Position numbers and translations under genes: made by a program
Notes under the pieces: generated by a model
What the model was told of the DNA's origin: nothing
The model's input: only the letters and a program-made list of their open reading frames with translations
Databases searched by the model: none
Source of the DNA: Cladosporium halotolerans
Taxonomy: Eukaryota
Direction of reading: 5' to 3'
Assembly (NCBI RefSeq): GCF_011745625.1
Contig: NW_027191489.1
Coordinates: 62,001-126,000 of the forward strand
Length of the DNA: 64,000 bases
Part shown: positions 14,087 through 64,000 of the stretch, in pieces
Layout of the letters: the number at the start of each line of letters is the position of its first letter
Position numbering within the stretch: position 1 is the first letter of the stretch

Positions 14087-14783
14087 TTTGAAGGCGAGCG
14101 ATGCAGCGGGTCTGGTGTGAGGTGTATTGGCACTTGCGACAAGAAGCAGCGACAGATGCAGCGGAGGTCAATTGTAGACAATGGATCTGGGATGTCCGTC
14201 CCGACTGCGGTATGCGGTAGGGCACAGCCCGGCTCCGACTGCCACCAGCTGTCCTACGCCCGGCCTGTGCGTTCTGCCAGTCCTTGTCCCTGTCGGCTGC
14301 CGCCTCAGCGCCTGTGGGCCTGACGAATGCGCGCTAGCGTCGCGACATGCAGGGACGAGCTTCACCTCTGTTTTGGCCGTCTGCTCTTCGTTTCATCACT
14401 GACACCTCCAACACCCTCATATCATCATCCTGCATCGGATGACGCTATGCCCAAGACTCGCATGCTTCGGTGTGGTCTCAGCCGAGTTCCGCTTGCGTCT
14501 CCATCGATCGTCCCCCTCTCCGCACCCAACCCCGGCCAGTACGCTGCGGGGAAGGGTAAATATTGCTATCGCCATATCATTCATCATGTAGCCATGGTAG
14601 CATCGCCTCTCACTGTTTAGCCAAGCTTTCGCGCGATGTCACTTCGAAATTGTATGCATCCAGGTATAAGTATTCTCTTGGCCTTCTCTTGACTCCCGGT
14701 CACTGTCGACATCAAGCCCTATAGATTGTTAGTTGGTGCATTCGCAGTGCGGATAAACTGTGAAGCCTTTCACTCCGCACAAG

Positions 14784-22965: not shown

Positions 22966-24246
22966 TCACTTGCCCTCAGGCCTCCTCAACGCATCCGCCT
23001 CTCTGGCACACTGCTCCGCCATCTCCTCCTGCTCATCTGTCTTGCAAACCAGCACCTTCTTGCCCTCGCCACCCTCCTTACTAATCTCCTCCACAACCTC
23101 CTTGCCAACCTTCCCATTCTTCGCGCCATCAACCTCAAATCCCAAACACTGAACCTTCCTCCCGACCGCCTCCCTCAGCTGAACACCATGCTCACCAATT
23201 CCACCCGCAAAAACCAACGCATCCACCTTTCCCTCCAACTTTACAAAATACGACCCAACATACCCCACCAGACGATCCACAAAAACCTCAAACGCCAATT
23301 TCGCCATCTCATCCCCCTTCTCCGCCTTCGCACTCACCTCGCCGAAATCCGTCGTCCCCGCCAGCGCCTTCCACCCACTCTCCTTGTTCAGAATCTCCTC
23401 CGCGCGCGTGACGTGCAATTCCTTCGAGCTGCCAGGCGAAGGCTGGCCGGCGTCGTGCGTGAAGTGAAAAATCAAGCTGGGGTCGACGTCGCCGCTGCGA
23501 GTAGCACCTGGCAAGCCCGAGAGGGGCGTGAGTCCCATGGTCGTGTCGAGGGACTTGCCGTTGCGGATAGCGCAAGCGGAGGCGCCGGAGCCGAGGTGCA
23601 GGGCGATGATGTTGAGATCTTCCTGCGGTTTCTGGAGGTGGGAAGCGACGGTGCGGGCGATGTAGGCATAGGAGAGGCCGTGGAAGCCGTATTTGCGGAG
23701 TTTGTTCTGTTGGGCCTTCGCGGGGTCGATCATGTAGGTGCGTGCTGGGGCGGGGATGGAGGCGTGGAAAGCGGAGTCGAAGAAGGCGATGTTGGAGGCC
23801 TTTGGGACTGAGGCGTGGACGGCCTTGACGATCTCGAGGGCGCCGGCGTTGTGTAGGGGCGCGAGAGCGGACAGGGCCTCGAGGTGGTGGTAGGTGTCGC
23901 GGTCGATGCGGGTGGGCTTGTCGTAGTCGCCACCGTGGACGATGCGGTGGCAGGCGAAAGCGATGTCATCCGGGTGCTTGAGTTCCTCGAGGTCTGGGTC
24001 AGAGGTGAGGTGTTCGAGGATGGACTTGAAAGCATCTTGGGCGTTGGAGATGTTGTCGATTTTTTTCCCCTTCGCGACGGAGGTCGAGCCACGGGAGTAG
24101 GTGAGCGCCACTGGAGGTGCTGTGAGGCCTGCGATCGAGATGGAGGCTAATTGTTTGGGCGGCGAAGAAGAAGATGGGTTAAAGGTGTAGACAGAGACTT
24201 TCACTGAGGAGGAGCCAGCATTGATAGAGAGGATAATTTGGGACAT
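22966..24246 (-). CDS. ackA: Acetate kinase (intronless)
   Basis: ILSINAGSSSVK, HRIVHGG, LAPLHN, FDSAFH, YGFHGLSY, HLGSGAS, ATRSGDVDP and FAGGIGE motifs. Confidence 0.96.
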   Translation of the reverse strand: MSQIILSINAGSSSVKVSVYTFNPSSSSPPKQLASISIAGLTAPPVALTYSRGSTSVAKGKKIDNISNAQDAFKSILEHLTSDPDLEELKHPDDIAFACHRIVHGGDYDKPTRIDRDTYHHLEALSALAPLHNAGALEIVKAVHASVPKASNIAFFDSAFHASIPAPARTYMIDPAKAQQNKLRKYGFHGLSYAYIARTVASHLQKPQEDLNIIALHLGSGASACAIRNGKSLDTTMGLTPLSGLPGATRSGDVDPSLIFHFTHDAGQPSPGSSKELHVTRAEEILNKESGWKALAGTTDFGEVSAKAEKGDEMAKLAFEVFVDRLVGYVGSYFVKLEGKVDALVFAGGIGEHGVQLREAVGRKVQCLGFEVDGAKNGKVGKEVVEEISKEGGEGKKVLVCKTDEQEEMAEQCAREADALRRPEGK

Positions 24247-24701
24247 CTTGACGGGATTCTGGAGTACAAGATTGTTCAACCCGAGCGGAATGTTTGGTTG
24301 ATGAGAGCAATTAGGGCAGATATTTATTTCCCGGCTGAAGAGCGTTCGTCGATGCAATGAGGGTCTGATTAATGGAGAATGAAGGGAAACTGATTTTCTG
24401 GACCAACGTCTTACAGATTGAAATCACTTACCTCAGAATGCCCACCCGCATGATCTAGAGCTCCAGCTGTGACGTGTGAAGTCAGCGTTGATGCAGCAAA
24501 AGACGGCAGGGCAGCTTGAAGCTCCGCCAGGATCCGGCCGATCGCTGCAGATCCCGCCCGCCTACCACCCAGAGGCGATCTGCGAACGAACCGCATAGCG
24601 CTTGCGCAATAATACGAAAAAGCTTTGTCGGGACGATTCATGGGAGCCACGTGCGAATGATTGGGTATCATTGTAAGCTTTTGCAGCGTCATTGGTACAG
24701 G

Positions 24702-29880: not shown

Positions 29881-30779
29881 CGAGGCACTTTTTTTCCGAT
29901 GAGTCGAGTGGGATGGGATGACGCTGTCAGCAGCAAGCACGCAAGCATGAAAGTGTGGGGTTGCCGTCGGCGGGAGGGCGCGTTTTGTGTAGGGCTCCTT
30001 CATCGTCGCGGTCGCACCGTCGGCGAAGGAAGCGGTTTCTCCCTATACCTACCTCACCACACGCACGCTGGGCTCGAGGATGGTCGACTGGCTCAGATTG
30101 CCTCGGTGCCGCTGAAGTTATCATGTTGAGCGCCTCATCAGTCCGGGCACAGAAGGGCCTGAGGCTGCACGCGAGACAGGAAGACCCGCAGTCGCGGAAA
30201 AGCGCACCTCACCGTCGCCCTCTGCGACGACGCTCCCGCACTCGCTCCGCCCCGCCGTCTTCACGGCCAATTCACACTGCTCAGAGGTCGTCGTTCTTGT
30301 CATCAGCGGCTTGACGGATAACTTCGGATGACGCTCCGGTTGCTCGCTGTCGCGACTGTTCTAGAAGCTCCAGGCGCCCGCGGGCCGCAGTCGTCTCCGC
30401 AGCATCTGTCCGGCCGACCGTCTGTTCTATCGGTCGTTTCCATGACTGGCAGACATGGGTTGCAGGCCATCATGGCAACAAAGGTTTGCTGCGTTCTTAA
30501 TCGGTGCCGTCGAGCGTTGTGCAAACGTTTCGGAGCATATGCCCGACTCCTAACAAACCGCCATGATAACGAAATGGCATTCTGACAAGCTCCGACCACC
30601 GGATCACCCATGCGACCCGCGGAGGCATGTCGCGGCGGCCTCGGGCCGGCAGACCCACAAGTACCGTGCCTCTTCAACAGAGGGTGGCGATTCAGCGTGC
30701 GACCAATCTCTCGCTGACATTTGCTTGCAACTGACGGTCCTGCAATAGCCCTCATGCTGCACTGGCTAACGCCTCCGCC

Positions 30780-33700
30780 ATGGCGTTGACGTGCGAGCAA
30801 TCCGCCGCCATAGCGGATCGTCAGCGGGTTTGGGAAGTTCGCCGCTTTTGCCAGGCGAGGTACGCACATTGGCAGCCTGCGCCCGGCGAGGATGTCGACG
30901 ACCTATCCAGGCCATCCGAGCAGGATGGTGCTCTTTCAGCCATGCTCCGCTGTTTGCTACACGAGCTTGATGGAGATGTTGCCGCAATATCGCTTCTCGA
31001 CGAGGATACGCAGCATTTCATTTCCATCGTCCACAGATCAACGATGCACCAGCCAGCCATAGGAGCTGCGGAGTGGTACGGTTGCGCGCAGGTTGACCAC
31101 CGGGGAGGCATTTGCGAGAAGACTATTACCATGGAAACGACTTCTGGAAAACATCCTGTTTACGAGGTTCTCGACCTTTCCACAGATGAAACCACCAAGT
31201 CCTTATCCATTGTGGACGGCACAGTAGCCAAATTTCGGCACTACGCGGGCGTGCCCATCTCTGCACCCAACGGGATGAAGATTGGCACTGTGTTTGTATT
31301 TTCAAACCAAGTCAAGGAAGATCCCTTGCCGCCAAATCAATCCCGATTCATGTGCGACACCACTCGTCATGTCACACTTCAACTCGTTCAAACCCTTCAA
31401 GCTTTGGAGAACCAGCGATCTCTACGCAGCAACTCGGCAGTGTCTTCTATGCTGAACGCCCGAGTTCCAGGAAGGACCAATAATTTGGCTCAGACGCTCG
31501 AGGGGATCACAACACCAACATCAAATACTTCTCTCATGACCGACATTTACCAGTCGGCTGCAAAACTACTACAACAAGGCTTCGAATTTGATGGCGTACT
31601 GATACAAGAGCTACCGGTGTTCAACGCCGCTTCAAAGGTCCAAAGACCACCAAAAGATAAAGTACTCGCTAGACACAGCAGCCCGAATGTCCAGTTGCCA
31701 GGGCCCGTGAAGGATCATATCGCCGAACAGCTCCTGGAAGAATTCCCGCTGGGCGCTGTTGTGCATTTGTTATCCGATCATGAGGGCGGAACGTTCCTCG
31801 CTTCTTACCAGGGAAGTCCTTCGAGAGGGGAAATACGGCTGGAACTTTGCGAGCAATTTCCCCAAGCTGAGCAGTTCTTGTTCATGCCCCTCAGAGACAG
31901 CTTTCACGATCGAGATGTCGCCTTCATCCTTGGGTATGCGTCTAAATCTCCCAGGGTGTTTTCCGGTAACACAGATTTACCCTCCTTGTACTCTTTCAGC
32001 ATGGCCATCATGACCCAGGTTCGACGTCTCGAAGCTCAGATCCTGTCGAGAAACAAGTCAGACTTTCTTGGCTCCATGTCGCACGAGATGCGGAGCCCAC
32101 TGCATGGGATACTTGCTTGCATCGAATTGCTGCAACAGACAGACTGCATTGCACACCAAGTCGATTTGCTCGAAAGTGCAGAGGCCTGCGGGCTTCAGCT
32201 TCGCGAGAACATCGACAATATCCTTCTTTATTCGAACATTGGATCACCCACTCCGAACTCCGAGAAGCCAGATCACACAAACTTTGAGGATCATCCAGAT
32301 GACACGAGCGGGAAGGATACAATGCTGGCTCTAGTTCAGGACACTATTTGCAGAAGTGACAGGAAGTGGAAGAGCACAAAGCCTGCCAACGGACACGAAA
32401 GCGGACTCTGGAAGCCGGACAATCGCAAGTCGACCAATCGATCGATTGATCCGACTCTTCACACCATCATCACTGTAGACGCAAACCCACGGGCGAATTT
32501 TCCTCTCCTGCGCTACTCGGGAATTGGAGTCATAATAAACAACTTGTTGGTTCGTATTCTGATATTCATTTCGAGAGGAATTCTTGCTGATTTCTTCAGG
32601 GTAATTGCATCAAATTTACACGACCGGACGGGTGCATTCGAGTCAGTCTGGACACCAAAGAGGACACCGTAAACCTCCGATTCGTGGATTCTGGACGCGG
32701 CATGTCCCCCGACTACGTCAAGAACTCACTTTTAGTACCCTTTGCGCAACAGAACCCTTTGGACACGGGCACTGGGCTTGGATTAGCACTCGTCCAGAAC
32801 GCTGTTCTATCACTTGATGGAGAAACGAGCATTGACACCGACGAGTCAAAAGGCACGGAAGTTCACGTTTCGCTTCCTTGGAACCGCCTCGCCGTCCGTG
32901 CGTGTAACGCCAATGGAGATGCAGACTGCCAGAATCCTCACGAGTACAAACAAGATCTGTCATCGCTGAGCGTGCGGCTTCTGACTCCATCGAGATGGCA
33001 ACATTCGGAAAGCGTGCGCCATCAGCGATCTCTCGAAACACTTACCACTTCTCTGGCACGAACGTTTCGAACCTGGATGAACCTGGAGTTCAAAATCTGG
33101 GAACCATCTGACGTTTTGCCCCAGGTCATGGTGGTCCTCAGCACCGACCTTGATCTCCTGAAAGATGCGGCCGGCGAAAGCTTCGGCAGCATACAGAAAA
33201 TCATACTCTGCCCAGATCAGCAAGCAGAAGAGACGATCGAAGCGTTAAACCCAGCTCCCTTCACCACAATCGCCGGTCCGATTACTCCCTATAAGGCGTG
33301 CGCTGCAGTCTCTCTATGCAAAGACAATATTCAGGATGGGCCAGAGGCCGAAGCAGACTCCTTTTGCGACCAACCGATCACTCAAATCCGCCAGCCCACG
33401 GACGAAAATCAACGTCGGGCTTCATCAATAACCTCACTCGCAATCCAACCCGACACGGACCGTGAATCAAGATCCAATCACCTCAGTACGCGAACCTCCC
33501 TCTCTATTCCCTACCGAAGTCGCTCCCGCCAACGCCATGCCGAACCGCCAGCCGAGCCGCGCTTCCTCTTGGTCGACGATAACGCCATCAACCTCAAAGT
33601 TGTCAGCATGTACGCGAAGAAGTGCAGTAAGCAGCCCTCTACTTCAGCCGGTGGCGGGCAGGAAGCGATCGACGCTTTCAAGACCGGCGACGGCTTCGAC

Positions 33701-33958
33701 ATCATCCTGCTCGATCTCTCCATGCCCGAAGTCTCGGGTTTCGACGTCGCGGCCGCAGTGCGCAAGTTAGAGGAGAGCGAGGGTTACGCGCGGCCGCGCA
33801 CGTACATTGCTGCGCTGACCGGGCTGGTCAGCGATAAGGATCGTGACGCCGCGTTTGCGGCAGGCGTGGATGAGTACGTGACCAAGCCGGCCACGCTGAA
33901 GGATCTGCAGCATGTTGTTGCGAATTGGCGAGGGGCGAAGGAAATGCCGCCTCGATGA
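30780..33958 (+). CDS. Hybrid sensor histidine kinase (GAF - HisKA - HATPase - receiver; intron about 32550-32599)
   Basis: GAF-like RHYAGVPI..PNG..IG, H-box SMSHEMRSPLHGI, NLL|GNCIKFT, DSGRGM, GTGLGLA and receiver LLVDDN...LDLSMP...TKP. Confidence 0.93.
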
Positions 33959-34786: not shown

Positions 34787-36343
34787 ATGTTGCCGTTCGT
34801 CCTGATCGCTTTGGGGGCCCTGTTCTTCATTTCGGTCGGCGTGGCCCTCACCTTGGACAGCAAACAGCGAGAAGTTGTTTTGAAGCGATTCGAAATCCGA
34901 CGCCGACGAGCAACAGGCTCACTGACGCCACCACGATCTCTTTCGCCCGAGAAGCAGGGTTCATCAACGAAAAAGGCTCCCACCGGGCCAGACTTCAGCG
35001 ACGCCTTCCCGCCGAGTCGCAGAGAGGCTTTAGCTGACCTACCTTCCGACGCATTGAAAGGACCTGGTAAATCGGCGAAGGAACTATCCCAAGTCCCGCC
35101 AGACTACAGCAAGAGGTTGCCCAGCGAGAACGCCTGGGATCCCGAGACTCAAGCGGGACATGCCACCGCAACCGGATTCACTCTTGAGGAGATTAGGCGA
35201 TTGGGCGACTTTCCAGACTACGCAGCGCTCAGTGGCGTGCCCCTGCCGGCCGAATACAAGGGCTTTGATATTACCAAAGCGAAGCCTAGACCTTTCCGTC
35301 CCCTAAGATGGGCCTACCATCAGACAATGTGTAAGCCGCATAAGAAACATCAAACGTGTGGCGCAGCCCGACCATGCTGACGGGCGGAAATAGCGCTGAC
35401 CAAACTCGAGACGGATTGGTGGCTCGAGCTCGAGAGCAGCTACGTCGAGCGCATTGCGCAGCGTCAAGCCCTATACCAACAGGACGGGCCCATGGTCCTA
35501 CAGCAGCTGCCGGGCGCCGAGCTGGCGGCCAAGGAGCTCATGGAGATGAGCCTCGAGTTCCTCTGCGCGCGCTACCCGCACTACTTCCGGCTGGACAAAC
35601 GCGCAATGCGCTTCTACAACAGCATCCTCAACACCACCACAGACCTCCGCGCCACGCCGCCCCTCCACGTGCTGCTGGACAACGTGCCGGAGGACTTCGC
35701 GTGCATGCTGCGCGACCCGGCCACGGGCCTGTACAGCTTCCGCGCGGGCGTGATCTGCTCGAGCCTGGGGTGGAACGTGGGCAGCAAGATCGGGCTGCGG
35801 CTGGACGAGATCCACGCGCCGATCCCGGACTACGCGGCCAAGATGCAGTTCTCGATGGACCGCTACTTCAGCAAGAAGCCGACGGACAAGCCCATCCAGC
35901 GCGGCTCGTGGGGGCTCGAGATCGACGAGCCGCTGTTCATGCCGCCGGGCGCGGCGCACGAGGCGCTGCGCGAGACGCAGGACCCCTCGCACACGCTGGA
36001 GCGCTGCCACTTCCGCGTCGACTGGCAGACGCTGCGGCGGCTGCCGCTCTCGGGCGCGGTGGTGTTCAACTTCAAGGCGCTGTTCACGCCCGTGGCGGAG
36101 TTCAGGGACGAGCCGTACGTGCCGGCGCTGCTGCTGAAAGTGCTGCGCGAAGGCAAGCGCAGCCTGATGGAGTACAAGAACACATGGCACACGGAGCACG
36201 TGGTGGTGCCGGCGCTGGAGCGGTTCGCGAGCGAGCAGGTGGCGGCTGGCTTGGTGGAGGAGGATTGGGAGCCGCACACGCTGGCCGAGTCGCCCTTCTT
36301 CCCCGGGTGGAGGGAAAAGTGGGGGCGCCAACAGGGCGTCTGA
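34787..36343 (+). CDS. DUF3445 / heme-dependent oxidative N-demethylase alpha-subunit-like protein with N-terminal membrane anchor (intron about 35330-35393)
   Basis: PRPFRPLRWAYHQTM|ALTKL...WLEL, RYPHYF, EDF, KIG..L.EIHAPIP, IQRGSWG and RVDWQTLRRLP.SGAVVF motifs typical of the fungal DUF3445 family. Confidence 0.82.
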
Positions 36344-56212: not shown

Positions 56213-57390
56213 CTAAGCTACTGCCAACGCACTAACATATTGCGGATTCAGTGGGTAATCGATGTATCCTTTCGGGTCCTTGGGCGTGTAGAAGACCGAC
56301 CGGTCGTATTTCTCCAGCGGCAGACCCTCCTTCACACGGTAGACTAGGTCAGGGTTCGTGACAAAATACCGTCCAAAGACAATGACAACATCGTGGTCCC
56401 TGTAAGTTTCGTCGACAGCATGCTTCGCCGATCCCGGTAAGAATCCTCCAGCCAATAGAACAGGGCTAGCATTGTCCCAGGATTTGACCATCCAGGAAAC
56501 CGATTTCTGCCCGCCACAATCGGAATCGTCGTTTCCCTTGATTCGAGCCTCGATTAAATGGAGAAATGATAGGCCAAGAGGCTTCAACTGTTGCAGCAAA
56601 TACTCGAAGGTTGGCTCAGGCTCGTCCATCAGCATTCCGCCAAAGCTGCTGTAGGGACTCAGGCGCATCGCAGTCCTCTCAGCACCCACGGCAGCGATGA
56701 CCGCTTTCGTCACCTCGACGTGAAAGCGGCTTCGGTTCTCAATGCTCCCTCCCCAGCCATCCGTCCGCTGGTTGGAAGTCGTCTGCAGGAAAGCGTCTGG
56801 TAAGTAGCCATTCGCGCCATGGATCTCCACGCCATCGAACCCAGCAGCGATCGCATTCTTCGCCGCCTTCGCATAGTCGCCAATCGCCTCCCAGATCTCC
56901 TCCTCGGTCATGGCCTCTGGTGTGGCATCCTCAGGCGACATCGGAACAGCGCTCGACGAGAGCATCCTGCAGCCTTCCGCTTTGAGGACTTCCGGATCGG
57001 CACAGCGGCCTTGGTGCCAGAGCTGGCAGTAAATCTTGCAGCCCTTCGAGTGCACGACGGAAGTGATCTCTTTCCATGATTCGACTTGGGCGTCTGACCA
57101 GATGCCCGGGCAGTTGCGGCGACCGATGGCGTTCTTTGCGATGATGGTTGCTTCGCTTATGATAAGGGTGCCTGGGACGCAAGAACGTTGCTCGTAGTAT
57201 TCTGCGATTACGGTAAACATTTGAATTGACCATGGTTATGCTTCAGCAAATCCGACTTTAGCTGCCTACCTTTGTTCATGGCGACAGCGTTCCAGTCGTC
57301 GCCCCATCGGAACCGCGTCAAAGGAGCCATCGCAACCCGATGCTCCAACTGGACATTTCCCACAGTGAGAGGCTCAAACAGTCTGGACAT
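56213..57390 (-). CDS. Old yellow enzyme family NADH:flavin oxidoreductase (intron about 57203-57269)
   Basis: LFEPLTVG..L.HRVAMAPLTRFR|EYYEQR, QLWHQGR, GFDGVEIHGANGYL, NQRTD.WGGSIENR.RF, RLSPY and FGRYFVTNPDL. Confidence 0.94.
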
Positions 57391-57633
57391 GATGACTTTT
57401 TGCGGTTCTTTGATCTCGATAGAGTTGATGGGTGTAGACGTCACGGTATTTTGATGCCATTCGTCGAGACGCTTCTACATCTATATACAACATTTAGTCA
57501 AATCCACATCACCGTACAAGCACTTCGGCGATGACTCGGACGAGATGGAGTGGTACTAGGAGGTCGCATATCAATGTATACACCCGGTACCAACCATGCC
57601 GAAGCCGACACCAATCACCGGCGTGCATTCTTA

Positions 57634-57652
57634 TCGGGACTTTTTTTGCCGA
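57634..57652. promoter_or_regulatory. Candidate Zn2Cys6 site TCGG-N11-CCGA upstream of the OYE gene
   Basis: TCGGGACTTTTTTTGCCGA, 244 nt upstream of the OYE ATG. Confidence 0.45.
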
Positions 57653-57939
57653 CCGATGCACCAAGACTAATAAGCTGGCGTAAAGAATCGATAGGCTTTT
57701 TGGCAAAGATACCAGTACGGTTCGCTTAGTCACAAAGTGGGTGTCAAGGACGAATGACTCCATTCTTGTAAGAAACACCAAACAATAGCCTTTCTCAACG
57801 TGATCGGATTATGACGCTCAAGGTACTGGACGCTGCGCAGAAACAGATTCCCATATTGCATGTACAGTAGGTAATTGTAAGAACAATAACGATCCATAGA
57901 AACTCAAAATCTTCCCCCTCTCGCAGCCCATCATCCCGA

Positions 57940-59965
57940 TCATACATCAGCCTTGCAACCTTTCTCGCCCACGTGAAACTCCTCCGCATCAGTCATAGGC
58001 GGCGTAGCAGGCGCAAAATACTCCTCGCCATCCCGCTCGCCCTCAAAGAAGCCCTCGCGGCCCTCGTTAGCAAGCCACTCCCTCTCAAACGGCGCAGCCT
58101 CGCGACCGGTAGGGAATATCTGCGGTTTGAAGAAGATCGCAATGATATAGTAAATGACGGCCGAAGTGAAGAACGTCAGCAGCCAGCCCATCATGTACAT
58201 GTATCGCGCAGCATTGCTGATCAGCTGCGGTTCATACTGTCCGATCAAGCCGGGGATGCCCATAGTAGTGCCCAGCAGCCAGGCGGCGACGCCGCACCAG
58301 TTGACGCCGGACCAGAACCAGTAGAGGCCGGAGGATTTGCCGTCGTAGCATGAGGGTACGTGTACGTTGCCCTTGCGGACAAGGAAGTAGTCGACGATGA
58401 TGCATGCGCATAGAGGTGCCATGAAGATGTTGTATGAACCCAGGAAACTGTGCGCTGTCAGTACGGAGACGGCTTGAGTCAAGATAATACGAAGAAAAGC
58501 CTTACCTCAGGAACGCGGAAGCGTTCGCCATAAGTTGCCATGGCTGAACGACAACACCCAGAATGGCGCAGAGCACCTGACCACGACGAATCGTGAGCCA
58601 TTTGGGGAAAAGACCGGTCATGTCCGCGCCAAAAGGAATGCTGTTGGCGCCGAAATTGGTGGCGAATACGCCAAAGAAGAAGGCCAAAGCCACGAAAAAT
58701 ATTCCGGCACGAGCACCGGCATTGAAATAGTGGTCAAGGATGGCGTCCAAAAGATCCCAAATATTCCAATGGGCAACTCCCCATCGCGCCTGGATGCTGG
58801 TCGTGCTTGCCATGCCTAGGAAGAATACGACGATAGAGGAGACGAAGACACTGATGCCTTGACTAATTCCAGCATCGCGGGGCTTCTTGCAGTAACGCGC
58901 AAGATCTGGCTGATTGACGAGCATGGGAGACAAAGACCCGAAGATCGTGTTGATCCCAGACATGATGCTCCAGCCGAGAGGGGTAACAGAAGGCGAAAGC
59001 TCAGCCCCTGAAGATGCCAGATCCATTGCTTTCAGGCCTCCACCGTTGGCCATGCACCATCCGAATAGTGCAAATGCGGCGATAGGCATCGTGCATCCTT
59101 TGATGGTGAAGATGTAGTGAATGCTTTTCGGATGGATCCACATCTATGAATAGTCAGAAGATACTTTGCAAGAGCCAACATCGGGCCACTTACGAATGGG
59201 AACTCCATGAGCCATGCCATGAAGAAAGCCAATAGCTGTTTCGATGTGACATTTGCGGTCGCAGAAAGTGTGTTCTCAAAGTTGTGCCACGAACTTCCAA
59301 AGATGCAGCGAAGCATCACCGATAGAACATTGCCAGCATAGAAAGACTGTATGCCGTACCAGATGATACACACAATCGCTCTGATGAAGACGAAAAAGTA
59401 GGAACCATACATTCCCATGACCGATCGGGCCAGAACTGGGCTGCAGCGGATTAGCGAAGCACAAATGGAAGATCTGGAAAGGAGAGAACACACAAGCCAA
59501 TGTGGTATTTTACACCTGGACGAGCCATGAGGACAACCACGACGGCGGCGAGGAATGACCCAATGCAAGCAGAGACGAAGGATTGTTGCCATGTCTGCGC
59601 AATGTCAGCTTCGAGAATATACCGACTGCTTTGCTGATAGCTCACCAGGCCAACAGTCACCAGCGCAGAACCTGTGTTCCAGCCCACGAGAGAAAACTGA
59701 TTTGAGAGCCAGTATAGCGGCAAGTTGAACCTGAATTTCTCTCTGTCAGGACCAAATCACAATCTGATCGCACGTGAAGGACATACCATGTCCAGGTCCT
59801 CTGCTCCACCGGGGTCGGCTCGAGATCTTTGTTTGACCACCTCGGATCACCAACCGTAGCATGTCCTTCATTACCTTCCGGTGACTTCAGGAAGTCAATG
59901 AACGCCTGCTTCGATCGAAATGGTGCAGCCATGTAGGCCTTGCTTGGCGCCTTGAACTTCACCAT
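57940..59965 (-). CDS. NCS1 family (Fur4/Dal4-like) nucleobase/allantoin permease (multi-exon)
   Basis: WSNKDLEPTP.EQRTWTW, PGVKYHIG, RSVMGMYGS, WYGIQ, NQPDLARY, ANSIPFGAD, IRRG, QPWQL and FLGSY motifs. Confidence 0.93.
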
Positions 59966-60220
59966 CACGCCTCGAGCTTGGGAGATGATCTTTCTTCGGT
60001 GTCGGCGTTGCCAGGATGTTGGAGATCTTCCAGGATGAGGAGTTATACAATTTCAAGAGTATTCCCCTTGCAGAAAGGAGCGCAGAGTCGAATCGTTCAT
60101 TCTATCTCATCAACAGAGATTATCGCCTCACATATACATAATGCTGAATGATGGCTCTTTGCCACCTTGAGACATCGCACAGCTCGCAATGAGGGTGACA
60201 GACGCATCCCAGCAGTTTCG

Positions 60221-60239
60221 TCGGCGCATTTCCAGCCGA
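60221..60239. promoter_or_regulatory. Candidate Zn2Cys6 site TCGG-N11-CCGA upstream of the NCS1 permease
   Basis: TCGGCGCATTTCCAGCCGA, 256 nt upstream of the permease ATG. Confidence 0.45.
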
Positions 60240-60662
60240 TGCAGTACAGTGCATCTTACCATGCCGACGGCAACATCCATGAGAGGCCTTGGAACCTTAC
60301 AGGTGCTAACGTATGAGTCGACAGGCTTGAGTTATCGGGAGAGTGACTGACTCGTGTACACGAGGACAGAGTTGAGGACGTTGGGCAGACTGGTCTTTAT
60401 CGATGCCCCTCCCAGCCCGATTGGTGTTAGACACGTCCTCAGAGATAAGATACTTGGCGTCACAGGCGCAAGTCCCGCTCAATCCTGCCTAGCTCTTATC
60501 TTTCGTCTGAGCTGGGTCGCGCTAGCACTGGTGTGATACACGAAGCAAGATGTGTGATCGCTGTAAGTCAGGCTAATAAGTGCCTCGTGGTGATGAGACC
60601 ATCCACGCCCCTTGGCCGTCAACGCACCATGCCTCGAGCTCCGCTTGTCCGTCAAATCAGAC

Positions 60663-60680
60663 TTTCGGCACGGACCGAAA
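60663..60680. promoter_or_regulatory. Ppr1/UaY-type site TTTCGG-N6-CCGAAA in the divergent permease/TF promoter
   Basis: TTTCGGCACGGACCGAAA has perfect 6-bp inverted arms and matches the TCGG-N6-CCGA consensus of Ppr1/UaY. A second CGG-N6-CCG lies at 60906-60917. Confidence 0.55.
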
Positions 60681-61282
60681 TGGGTTCGCGACATCGAACG
60701 CGTCGATTCATCCGTCCTTGCGGTTAGTCGGAAAATCGTACACAGAATCTCCACTATCGACAACTGTAATAACAATCATATGAAGATCTCACACCACAAA
60801 CACTCTACTGACTAACCATCGGCGATTGCTGCTCAGCCCGCAGCGTGAGACACCATATTGTAGGGTAGTACAATAATTTCCCCTCCCTCTATTCGGCGCC
60901 GAAATCGGATTGGCCCGGTCCGACTGCCTTTCCCGGTGGCTGCGGAGAGCCGCTTGCGGAGAGTTTGGAGGCGTGGGAGGCTCATCGGTCCAGTCGCGAA
61001 GAGGAAGGATGGCTGACTATCCAGACCACTTGGATACACTTAGCTCCAGCCGGGCCATCTTCATCACGGCCGGGCTCCTGATCAGCTGACGATAGTGGAG
61101 ATAGCACTCACTTCGACCACTCAGCCGAGCCAGCCTCCTGCCGTCGCAACATCCTCAAACATCTCCGTAGGTCCGATCGGTTTATTTCTTTCCTTGCACA
61201 CTGTCTCACATATCGGGTGTTTTTGTCCCTTGTCTGTCGCCCATTTGAGTGTTGAGAACTACACGTGACTTATCGTGGTACA

Positions 61283-64000
61283 ATGGCTGCGCATTACCGC
61301 AATGACAGCGTGCTTGGCCACAAGGCTGCCATTGGCGACGGGCAGTCTACGCAGACCCAGCAGAACGCAATGGAAAGATCATTTCCAGCGAACGAGACAA
61401 ATGCGCATTATGATCGCAGGACCTCCGACATTAGCAATGAAGCGGCTGCCAAAAGCGTTGGCCCAACTTCATCTGCGCCTCGAAAGCACCGCGTGCCTTT
61501 GGCGTGTAAGAGGTGCAAACGAAGAAAGCAGCGGGTACGTACTTCTGGCATGCGTCTGCCTACGCTGTTTCATTGAGTCGCACAATGCCTGATCATAACG
61601 CTCTTATTATAGTGCGATGGCACCCGCCCCTGCTGTAAATCTTGCGACAGGGTGGGTGTGGCGTGTGCGTATGAGAAGTCCGTCCGTCCTCAGTATCCCG
61701 GCGGAAAAACATTGTACGTTGAGATCCATTCCTAAAGTTTGATGACGCTCGGTGTACTAGCAGAACTACAGGTACATCAACGCTTTGGAGGAGCGCATTG
61801 CATTTCTCGAAGCTCGAATACCCGACCAAGCCGAGGATCACTTCGTTGCTGAAGCAGACGACAACCCCGTATCCACCTCCGATGCTGTAGGACAAGCGCC
61901 AATGGCAAGATTTCCAAAACGACGAGACTCTTCTCATCAGTCCATGGGAGATTCGGTCTCTGAGGATGCCGATTTCGACGACAGGAGCTCTCTGGTAGAT
62001 GGCGTGGCTTACCTCTCTCTCTGTGCATCTGGCACCACAGACACAACTTCGGAGCCGTACTATGTCGGCTCTAGCTCTGGAGCAACGATCGCCCGTGTCA
62101 TCCAGTCGTCCATCTTCCGAGGTGCGGGCAGCCGAGCCGCAAATCATGCGGCACTTCAAGAAGAAAACCGAACAGCACATTCCTCAAGGCCGCTCACACC
62201 GCCGCTTTCGACGGAATCAGATCAAACGCCATGCGATTTTCCTGAGCCTGAACAAGCTCGAATGCTGTTCGACATTTTCTTCGAGCGTATCCACACCCGT
62301 TGGCCGATCCTGGATCGCGTGGTGTACGAGCGCTCGTTCGAGAAGCAGTATATCCTGGGTGCTTTGACGGTGGTCGAGCGGAGCATATTCCATCTCATCT
62401 ATGCGATTACTGCTCGATTCTTGTCTCTGACGAGAAAATTGTGTAGTGTTGACTCTGAGGTAATGTGATCAGCATGGCGATGGAGGGCGCCTGGCTAACA
62501 GTATGCAGCGTCACCTTCTCGCCGCCACAGCATCGATGGATTTCATTTTGGAGCAACACAGCCTTGCCACCCTTCAATTCCTGGTCCTTCTAGGGGTTCA
62601 CGGCCAGAGATCCCCGTATGGTGCAGGCGCTTGGTCTCAGATCAGATATGCTACTTCTGTCTGCATCGAGATGGGCTTGCACAGAAAGCGAACTCGGATC
62701 GCTTCAGTAGAGCAAGCAAGAGATGCTGAGATCCGTCGCCGCGTGTTCTGGGCTTGCTATTGCCTTGACCGTTCTACAAGTATCGTGCTTGGCCGTGCGT
62801 TTGCAATTTCTGACAAAGACATTAATGTCGAGGTATGCTACACGCATGTATTCTCATCAGACTCTTGCTAACATCACAAAAAGCTCCCTAGCGCTGGCGG
62901 CCAATTTTGGAGCTTGACGCACAAAGAAGCTCGTGACCCGGCAAAGGGGCACTGGTCAAATGTTGAGCCCTTCATTCATATAATCAAGTTGGACCGGATC
63001 AACTCACGGACCCACAAAGCTGTGTTCCGTGTCGACCGGGACATCCTTAGCGGTCCGCCTGAAGAGAAGGCCAAGCTTGATCAGAAGATGGCCACTATCA
63101 GATCTGACCTGGATGAATGGCTGAGCACATGTCCTCAAACCCCCAAAGAAGGCAACAAGATCACCTGGATGTACGACCCGGAAAGCGCCTACCTCGACGC
63201 GCGGGACTTCTACGGGGTGTGAGTACCATTTGCACGAATATCACTTGCCACTAGCTCATAGCTGTGTAGGCAATACCATAAAGCCGTGCTCTTTCTCTTC
63301 ACGACACTTCTTCCGACTCTGGACAAGTCTGACCCGCGCTTCATCACCTGTGCCCACTCCGCCACTGCCGTATGCACAGCGTATAAGAGACTCAACCAAA
63401 ACCGGACACTCACATACACTATGATTTCTCTACATTCAGTCTTCGTTGCTGGCCTTACGCTGGTTTACTGCATCTGGCGTGACCGATTGCTTTTCTCCTA
63501 CGAGACTCTTGAGGCGACAAGAGATTGCTCCCAGTCTCTCACTATTTTCGGCGAGAAGTGGCCAGGCGCAGTCAAATACCGCGACATCTTCGATGCCCTC
63601 TCCGGAAGTGTCCTCAAATCTATCGTCAATCCCGGACCGTCAGTGCCTCATGCTGGAGCATCCTGTCCTGTGGCAGCCAGCAATGCCATAGATCCAACTA
63701 TATCCAGCCGACAATCTCACAGCCAGCGAAGCGGCCAGCATCGAGCAAAACGAGGCTCAATTCCGCATGAAGAACAGACAATGGGCAACACGGTGCCCGA
63801 AGCCGTAAAAGAGGCGTTCATGGAAGTTGACGGGGAAGCGCCCGGCGGATGGCAAGGGTGGCGCATGTGGAACGACATGATGAAGGACGACACGACCCTT
63901 GTCCCAGACCCGGCAACTCGATCAACGGCGAACCCACAACGATCTGATGACCTTACTTGGCATGCGTATGCGGACACTGGCTTTTACGGTGTCGATCCAG
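61283..64000 (+). CDS. Zn(II)2Cys6 transcription factor, Ppr1/UaY-like (multi-exon, 3' end beyond the window)
   Basis: ACKRCKRRKQR|CDGTRPCCKSCDRVGVAC, YINALEERIAFLE dimerisation helix, YVGSSSG, EMGLHR, RRRVFWACYCLDR..S..LGR; the frame is open to the window end. Confidence 0.9.

Follow-up and report, generated by a model that had tools for sequence, protein, structure and literature searches.

Co-regulated gene clusters for the breakdown of N-heterocycles such as purines and nicotinate are known from fungi, and few of them have been worked out. In the nicotinate (hxn) system of Aspergillus nidulans, the old yellow enzyme (OYE) HxnT reduces 2,3,6-trihydroxypyridine, HxnM, a cyclic imidase of carbohydrate esterase family 4 (CE4), opens the ring, and the amidase HxnN carries out the deamidation; the closest structures given for these three proteins are OYE1, HpPgdA and FAAH1 (PMC9304392, PMC8478523). 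Substrates of NCS1 transporters include ureides (in part PMC8306328). Here we describe a 64,000-nucleotide (nt) stretch of the Cladosporium halotolerans genome (contig NW_027191489.1, positions 62,001 to 126,000; hereafter the window), whose right end carries genes for an OYE and an NCS1 permease in tandem on the minus strand and, divergent from both, a gene for a Zn2Cys6 regulator. This arrangement, proposed in an initial annotation of the DNA, was borne out by Pfam searches and gene models. We consider it probable, on balance, that the three genes belong to a substrate-induced six-gene catabolic cluster of Pezizomycotina that imports and degrades a small N-heterocycle.

All three proteins have orthologs in many Dothideomycetes and Sordariomycetes, with identities of 60-83% for the OYE, 60-85% for exon 5 of NCS1 and 42-66% for exon 3 of the regulator; the window NCS1 shares 56% identity with P0198, a Fur protein of A. 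nidulans. The Verticillium albo-atrum orthologs have the locus tags ACHAQH_009613 (OYE), 009616 (regulator) and 009617 (NCS1), and adjoining orthologs are found in Phialemonium thermophilum (VTK73DRAFT_2404, 2405 and 2408), Cylindrodendrum hubeiense (g4042, g4047 and g4048), Fusarium commune (ACKAV7_012175 and 012176) and Aureobasidium pullulans (QM012_002761 and 002762). Scanning metagenome contigs with an NCS1 alignment yielded 37 fungal loci in 26 non-redundant groups, which were mapped by tblastn with the window proteins and the amidase part of protein P0121. The initial annotation had named co-conservation of the three genes beforehand as a test of its reading, and they were found together: the regulator gene is divergent from NCS1 in 17 of the 18 evaluable non-redundant groups (the exception is locus L030), and the OYE gene is either the downstream neighbour of NCS1 or lies beyond the regulator. 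Among 19 evaluable groups, the gene downstream of NCS1 encodes an amidase in eight, the OYE in seven and a major facilitator superfamily (MFS) transporter of the cluster in one, and is none of these in three. Whichever of OYE and amidase is not downstream of NCS1 is located 4.5-5 kb past the regulator. By Pfam, the DNA between the regulator and this far gene contains an MFS_1/TRI12-like gene and a Polysacc_deac_1 (CE4) gene, so that the families added by the relatives are MFS_1/TRI12, Polysacc_deac_1 and Amidase. All six genes are visible in six groups.

Judged from gene order in the relatives, the three window genes represent half of a conserved set of six, coding for an NCS1 permease, an OYE, a PuuE-like CE4 hydrolase, a malonamidase-E2-like amidase, an MFS transporter and a Zn2Cys6 regulator, and the initial description of a 'self-contained' unit did not hold. 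The window has the layout NCS1 then OYE. In the relatives with the same layout (L008, L017 and L025), genes for the PuuE-like CE4 (convergent with the regulator gene), the MFS and the amidase (divergent from the MFS gene) follow one another past the regulator, with TCGG-N11-CCGA between the MFS and amidase genes, and their counterparts should lie just past the right edge of the window in this genome; the suggestion that a hydantoinase or amidase gene might stand there is consistent with this synteny. Flanking genes vary among relatives, and Pfam searches of the flanks of L016, L022, L023, L029, L030 and L033 revealed only unrelated genes and no further shared cluster gene. Five public gene models of about 1000 aa (P0121, P0135, P0136, P0154 and P0185) join an NCS1 ortholog to an amidase, for which reason an amidase gene was expected next door. 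These fusions are probably merged gene models and not real, since tblastn matches to the two genes are about 500-600 nt apart in the fetched loci.

A second line of evidence is the inverted repeat TCGG-N11-CCGA. The window contains five copies compared with 1.53 expected, a number reached in one of 100 shuffles. Three of the five are located within about 1.9 kb of promoter DNA, where about 0.045 would be expected (arithmetic from the shuffle mean), and the other two, at 14467 and 36821, are about the chance level for the remaining 60 kb. We then counted TCGG...CCGA at spacings of 0-20 in the relatives. Spacing 11 had 68 copies in all 37 loci, compared with 0-29 for other spacings, and 55 copies in 26 representative loci (305,701 bp), compared with 0-19 at other spacings, an enrichment of about tenfold that is found only at spacing 11. 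Most of these 55 copies (46, or 0.71 per kb) are in cluster intergenic DNA, whereas three (0.02 per kb) are inside cluster genes and six (0.06 per kb) are outside the cluster. The initial annotation had also looked to conservation of the site in orthologous promoters, and this was evident when perfect copies no more than 700 nt upstream of each gene were counted over the evaluable non-redundant groups: NCS1 has such a copy in 17 of 20 groups, OYE has one in 12 of 14, the amidase gene in six of 12 and the CE4 gene in three of 11, and the intergenic region that the regulator has in common with NCS1 contains one in 10 of 17. Copies were also found in the divergent OYE/MFS or amidase/MFS intergenic regions of relatives. 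Gene order and site are thus conserved across Dothideomycetes and Sordariomycetes. That the genes are chance neighbours with a chance motif and form no functional unit is extremely improbable. One shuffle in 100 did match the window count, and two of the five copies are at unrelated places, but 26 non-redundant relatives, with NCS1 identities as low as about 50%, show conservation of both gene order and site, and the enrichment is specific to spacing 11, so that the synteny and site data already contradict this explanation.

The fuller consensus of the site in the relatives is TCGGCTSNAAANNTGCCGA, with a conserved, A-rich centre, to which the OYE- and NCS1-upstream copies of the window conform when read on the gene strand. 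Their distances from the start codons, 244 and 256 nt, were confirmed as initially reported. The NCS1-upstream copy is 189-299 nt from the start in most groups. In relatives with the same layout, one or two copies are found upstream of OYE, the pairs being 35-59 nt apart (two copies in L008, L017, L019, L024, L025 and L026). The perfect OYE-upstream copy in the window and a one-mismatch copy match this two-copy arrangement; as 34 one-mismatch copies are expected per window by chance, the latter is weak on its own, and this background also makes promoter counts with one mismatch or fewer uninformative in the relatives. A third perfect copy upstream of the regulator, which the initial annotation did not mention, has the centre ATTGGCCCGGT, which fits the family consensus poorly; autoregulation of the regulator through it is possible. 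L029 and L031 likewise have a second intergenic copy.

In an alignment of 15 NCS1 promoter sequences, the site is the main conserved island. Two other blocks were observed in the same alignment. A [GC]ATATG[AT]G block about 70-80 nt downstream of the site is common to the NCS1 promoters and is possibly a core promoter element, and a TTATCG block (GATA-type core) upstream of the site may reflect nitrogen-metabolite control. In the window the corresponding positions are 60127-60136 and about 60332-60336 on the minus strand, the nearest GATAA being somewhat shifted relative to the alignment, at about 371 nt from the NCS1 ATG on its upstream side.

The regulator belongs to the Zn2Cys6 family: its N-terminus reads CX2CX6CX6CX2CX6C, spanning the first intron, whose splice junction is confirmed by RNA, Fungal_trans was found at 62464-62868 on the plus strand (1.2e-19), and PF00172 and PF04082 are present on most regulator orthologs. 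Gal4-type Zn2Cys6 sites are CGG-N11-CCG, and the site described here likewise has inverted CGG half-sites 11 bp apart. It differs in its extended half-sites (TCGG/CCGA) and its conserved A-rich centre, and the regulator is not a Gal4 ortholog. The sites of UaY and Ppr1 are inverted CGG half-sites 6 bp apart, whereas the spacing conserved here is 11, and spacing 6 had six copies compared with 55 for spacing 11 in the 26 loci. The initial designation of the regulator as 'Ppr1/UaY-like' therefore stands at the level of the family and fails at the spacing of the site. The name 'positive regulator of purine utilization' on some regulator orthologs is automatic only.

The gene models were built by hand after a Pfam run on all long open reading frames (ORFs) of the window, and were compared with spliced RNA contigs of two public runs, X1 and X7 (Table 1). 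Oxidored_FMN was found at 56216-57235 on the minus strand (1.9e-73, 248 bits compared with a cut-off of 27), on exon 2 of the OYE gene. The spliced OYE has two exons and 369 aa and matches a 369-aa Parastagonospora protein over its whole length, with no gaps (P0007, 78% identity); no spliced contig in X1 or X7 covers this gene or its intron. Transp_cyt_pur was detected on three exon ORFs within 57943-59604 on the minus strand (57-103 bits, cut-off 23.5), and the NCS1 gene has six exons encoding 585 aa, aligning without gaps to a 585-aa Didymella protein (P0124, 79% identity). Four of its five introns (2-5) are supported by spliced contigs of X1 and X7, and intron 1 is placed by its GT..AG ends and gapless homology only. 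At the last of these introns, X7 shows the 58447/58506 junction, and the X1 contig links 58449 to 58515 through seven other letters; the X1 contig is from a close relative that differs at that intron or exon end. All five regulator introns, among them intron 2 at 61714-61771, are seen in spliced contigs of X1 and X7. The six regulator exons encode 810 aa in the window, and about 24 codons before the stop are lost, as the alignment reaches residue 791 of the 815 of the best ortholog, P0246. The spliced contigs also establish transcription of both the NCS1 gene and the regulator gene.

Table 1 Coordinates of the cluster genes and candidate operator sites in the window.
Feature	Position	Strand	Basis or remark
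OYE ene-reductase, exon 2	56213-57201	-	Stop codon included; Pfam Oxidored_FMN
OYE intron	57202-57269	-	GT..AG ends and gapless alignment only
OYE exon 1	57270-57390	-	ATG at 57390; gapless homology across junction
One-mismatch copy of the site (CCGG...CCGA)	57584-57602	.	OYE promoter; 50 nt from the perfect copy at 57634
TCGG-N11-CCGA site	57634-57652	.	244 nt upstream of OYE ATG (57390)
NCS1 (Fur-type) permease gene	57940-59965	-	Pfam Transp_cyt_pur, homology, RNA contigs
NCS1 exons	59965-59787, 59730-59646, 59594-59494, 59440-59194, 59143-58506, 58447-57940	-	ATG at 59965
TCGG-N11-CCGA site	60221-60239	.	256 nt upstream of NCS1 ATG (59965)
Third TCGG-N11-CCGA copy	60905-60923	.	378 nt upstream of regulator ATG (61283)
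Zn2Cys6/Fungal_trans regulator gene	61283-63999	+	Pfam, homology, RNA contigs; truncated by window end
Regulator exons	61283-61534, 61613-61713, 61772-62459, 62509-62832, 62884-63218, 63270-63999	+	ATG at 61283

Elsewhere in the window, an MFS_1 transporter gene (54071 to about 55945, plus strand) is convergent with the OYE gene. It was rejected as a candidate for the MFS gene of the cluster: it had no tblastn match at 1e-10 in the 37 loci, showed only a 26-bit local match with the TRI12-like MFS of the cluster, to which it is not orthologous, and has no copy of TCGG-N11-CCGA upstream. Further genes recognized by Pfam only encode an acetate kinase homolog (22969-24423, minus strand), a hybrid histidine kinase (30735-33955, plus strand) and a HODM_asu-like protein (haem-dependent oxidative N-demethylase alpha-subunit-like; 35381-36340, plus strand).

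We propose that the cluster operates as follows. A dimer of the cluster-encoded Zn2Cys6 protein would bind the TCGG/CCGA half-sites 11 bp apart and turn the genes on in the presence of the substrate. Going by the families of the proteins, the NCS1 permease would take in a small heterocycle whose ring is an unsaturated cyclic imide or ureide, the OYE would reduce its activated C=C bond, the PuuE-like CE4 hydrolase would open the ring at the imide bond, and the amidase would free ammonium from the resulting half-amide or ureido acid, providing nitrogen. The uptake, ring-reduction and regulator interpretation of the initial annotation is supported overall, with biochemical functions that are putative and read from sequence. 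Candidate substrates are uracil- or thymine-like pyrimidines, hydantoins, and imides of the maleimide or dihydroxypyridine type. A ureide, such as uracil, thymine or a hydantoin, is suggested by the NCS1/Fur family and by the PuuE-like enzyme; the malonamidase-like amidase and the OYE suggest an unsaturated imide resembling maleimide or dihydroxypyridine.

The window OYE is a member of its family (PF00724) and has HGANGY at residues 168-173 of the spliced protein, which we take to correspond to the substrate-binding His/Asn pair and the Tyr proton donor of OYE1 (H191, N194 and Y196). Its closest solved structure is the chanoclavine-I aldehyde reductase EasA (4qnw, 8e-103), ahead of OYE1-3 and NemA. 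EasA/FgaOx3-type OYEs act in ergot alkaloid synthesis, and the combination of an MFS transporter with a Zn2Cys6 regulator is typical of secondary-metabolite clusters, for which the genes described here might be tailoring and transport genes without a catabolic role. We regard this as very unlikely, since no polyketide synthase, nonribosomal peptide synthetase, terpene cyclase or prenyltransferase was found by Pfam among long ORFs (at least 120-130 aa) in the relatives scanned (all of L001 and L025 and the flanks of L016, L022, L023, L029, L030 and L033) or in 56 kb of the window, and the variation of the flanking genes between relatives also speaks against it. The similarity of the OYE to the N-ethylmaleimide reductase subfamily of NCBIfam bears on another alternative, namely that the cluster provides detoxification of, or resistance to, an imide toxin, for example a maleimide or one of the glutarimide antibiotics, which would be reduced, opened at the ring and exported as product by the TRI12-like MFS. 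OYEs reduce maleimides well, and the cluster MFS matches TRI12, an efflux-pump family, in addition to MFS_1. The match to the reductase subfamily (1e-61), however, is 209 bits and below the cut-off of 403, a dedicated NCS1 importer under the common site makes little sense for a toxin, and the GATA-type block in the NCS1 promoters hints, weakly, at nitrogen control. Detoxification therefore seems distinctly unlikely to us.

The Pfam matches place the permease in the NCS1 family (PF02133); with the subfamily model TIGR00800, the ortholog P0124 scored 339.7 bits, just below the cut-off of 353.1. NCS1 orthologs carry the automatic name allantoin permease, but P0124 is well below the cut-offs of the allantoin permease equivalogs (144 compared with 620 for NF008476, and 104 compared with 800 for NF047713). 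The CE4 and amidase results come from the genes of relatives, outside the window. For about 270 residues, the CE4 protein can be aligned with the PuuE allantoinases 3cl6 and 1z7a of Pseudomonas and with 3s6o at about 1e-70, compared with only 1e-9 for HpPgdA, and its only NCBIfam match is 'allantoinase PuuE'. The CE4 of L017 (4068-4916), an ORF that lacks about 33 N-terminal positions of the model, scored 280.7 bits for PuuE (TIGR03212), below the cut-off of 424.6, and the protein is therefore called PuuE-like and not an allantoinase. These names and alignments suggest an alternative in which the cluster serves ureides: the permease would import allantoin or a 5-substituted hydantoin, the CE4 would be a true allantoinase or hydantoinase, the amidase would cleave the ureido group, and the OYE would be an accessory. 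One related group that retains the cluster without an OYE gene agrees with such a role. On the other side are the two scores below the allantoin-specific cut-offs and the conservation of the OYE gene, which has the shared site in 12 of 14 groups and for which the breakdown of allantoin offers no explanation. In addition, these fungi already have a DAL1-type allantoinase pathway. We judge a ureide cluster of this kind to be unlikely and prefer the broader reading of a catabolic cluster for an N-heterocycle.

The amidase of the relatives is closest to malonamidase E2 (MAE2, 7e-40) and has the triad of the amidase signature family (PF01425; K62, S131 and S155 in MAE2): both catalytic serines are kept, and visual inspection of the fused models P0121 and P0154 shows the lysine, as part of KD. 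Arg158 of MAE2 is kept too, but is presumably general to the amidase family and for this reason uninformative on the substrate. The closest bacterial relatives of the cluster amidase are from Cellulosimicrobium (40-58% identity in segments). There (L057:2412-9091 and L038), genes for CN_hydrolase, MFS_1, an NMT1/THI5-like binding protein, OYE and amidase form a same-strand row. Cellulosimicrobium is the only one among 80 bacterial loci with an OYE gene directly upstream of the amidase gene, and the row, in which an OYE accompanies a malonamidase-like amidase, may represent a counterpart in bacteria.

Several observations weigh against a substrate-induced catabolic cluster as proposed here. Only three of the six genes are within the window, the other three being predicted from the synteny of relatives. 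The group of L014-L016 and L018 keeps amidase, MFS, CE4, regulator and NCS1 genes and has no OYE gene within 10 kb on either side. L030 has OYE, CE4, NCS1 and amidase genes, without the regulator beside NCS1 and without a perfect copy of the site. The NCS1 promoter has no perfect site in three of 20 groups, and for the amidase and CE4 genes an upstream copy is lacking in at least half of the groups. Furthermore, we infer that the regulator of the cluster, rather than another Zn2Cys6 protein, binds the site, and any link of the cluster genes to a substrate would follow from family membership. With the CE4 below the PuuE cut-off, the substrate need not be allantoin-like. Finally, the 80 bacterial loci of the closest amidase relatives showed no recurrent pairing with PuuE-like, NCS1 or OYE genes (an NCS1-like gene in one, a CE4-like gene in one and an OYE-like gene in three).

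Full-text literature searches, with supplementary tables outside their scope, found no description of this gene set. The cluster is widespread in plant-associated Dothideomycetes and Sordariomycetes, where its members are annotated by generic names only. Its candidate operator is sharply delimited and its regulator is a dedicated one, which makes the regulon amenable to direct tests. Knowing the substrate would extend fungal metabolism by a route for nitrogen scavenging and would give a function to a branch of the NCS1/Fur family, to fungal PuuE-like CE4 proteins and to malonamidase-like enzymes.

Compared with systems in which a PuuE allantoinase and NCS1 permeases (PucI, Mhp1 and FurA) occur, the cluster likewise pairs a metal-independent PuuE-type CE4 hydrolase with a ureide-type NCS1 protein. 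It differs in that both proteins are below the equivalog cut-offs and in its additional OYE and malonamidase-like amidase, a combination that we know of in no allantoin pathway. In reductive pyrimidine catabolism, dihydropyrimidine dehydrogenase reduces the C5=C6 bond, dihydropyrimidinase hydrolyses the ring and beta-ureidopropionase hydrolyses the carbamoyl group. The order of the chemistry is the same as that proposed for the cluster, whereas all three cluster enzymes are from other families. The cluster could conceivably be a non-orthologous version of the uracil/thymine pathway, in which the OYE would stand in for dihydropyrimidine dehydrogenase, the PuuE-type CE4 for dihydropyrimidinase and the amidase-signature enzyme for beta-ureidopropionase, with the Fur-type NCS1 as the uracil carrier and the Zn2Cys6 protein as activator through TCGG-N11-CCGA. 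The NCS1/Fur family does include uracil carriers, but to our knowledge uracil activity is known for none of the three enzyme types, and we hold this specific pathway to be improbable. In the bacterial cyclic-imide pathway of Blastobacter, an imidase is followed by a half-amidase, and the substrate of malonamidase E2 is a half-amide. Both that pathway and the cluster would open a cyclic imide and then have an amidase act on the half-amide; the former is bacterial and, as far as we know, is not known to involve an OYE or NCS1.

The hxn system offers the closest parallel. In both, members of the OYE, CE4 and amidase-signature superfamilies are clustered with transporters and a pathway regulator, and the logic would be the same: reduction of an unsaturated N-heterocycle, hydrolytic opening of the imide ring, and deamidation to free the nitrogen. 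Each enzyme, however, belongs to another subfamily, with EasA (4qnw), PuuE (3cl6) and malonamidase E2 as the closest structures here; the two sets are told apart by these structures, as given for hxn in those reports, and not by direct alignment. The resemblance of the window OYE to HxnT noted in the initial annotation accordingly holds for function and does not extend to orthology. The importer is an NCS1 protein here and an MFS protein (HxnP or HxnZ) in hxn. The cluster does not have the orthologs of HxnT, HxnM and HxnN and the other hxn genes that would make it a nicotinate cluster as described in those reports. Counterparts of the other hxn enzyme genes were not found in the Pfam-scanned loci of relatives, and no further enzyme family was found between the six cluster genes. 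Because the enzyme subfamilies, the importer and the set of enzyme genes differ, the cluster works like the lower hxn pathway and is not part of it. The logic of ene-reductase, CE4 ring hydrolase and amidase seen in hxn seems to have been assembled here a second time, independently.

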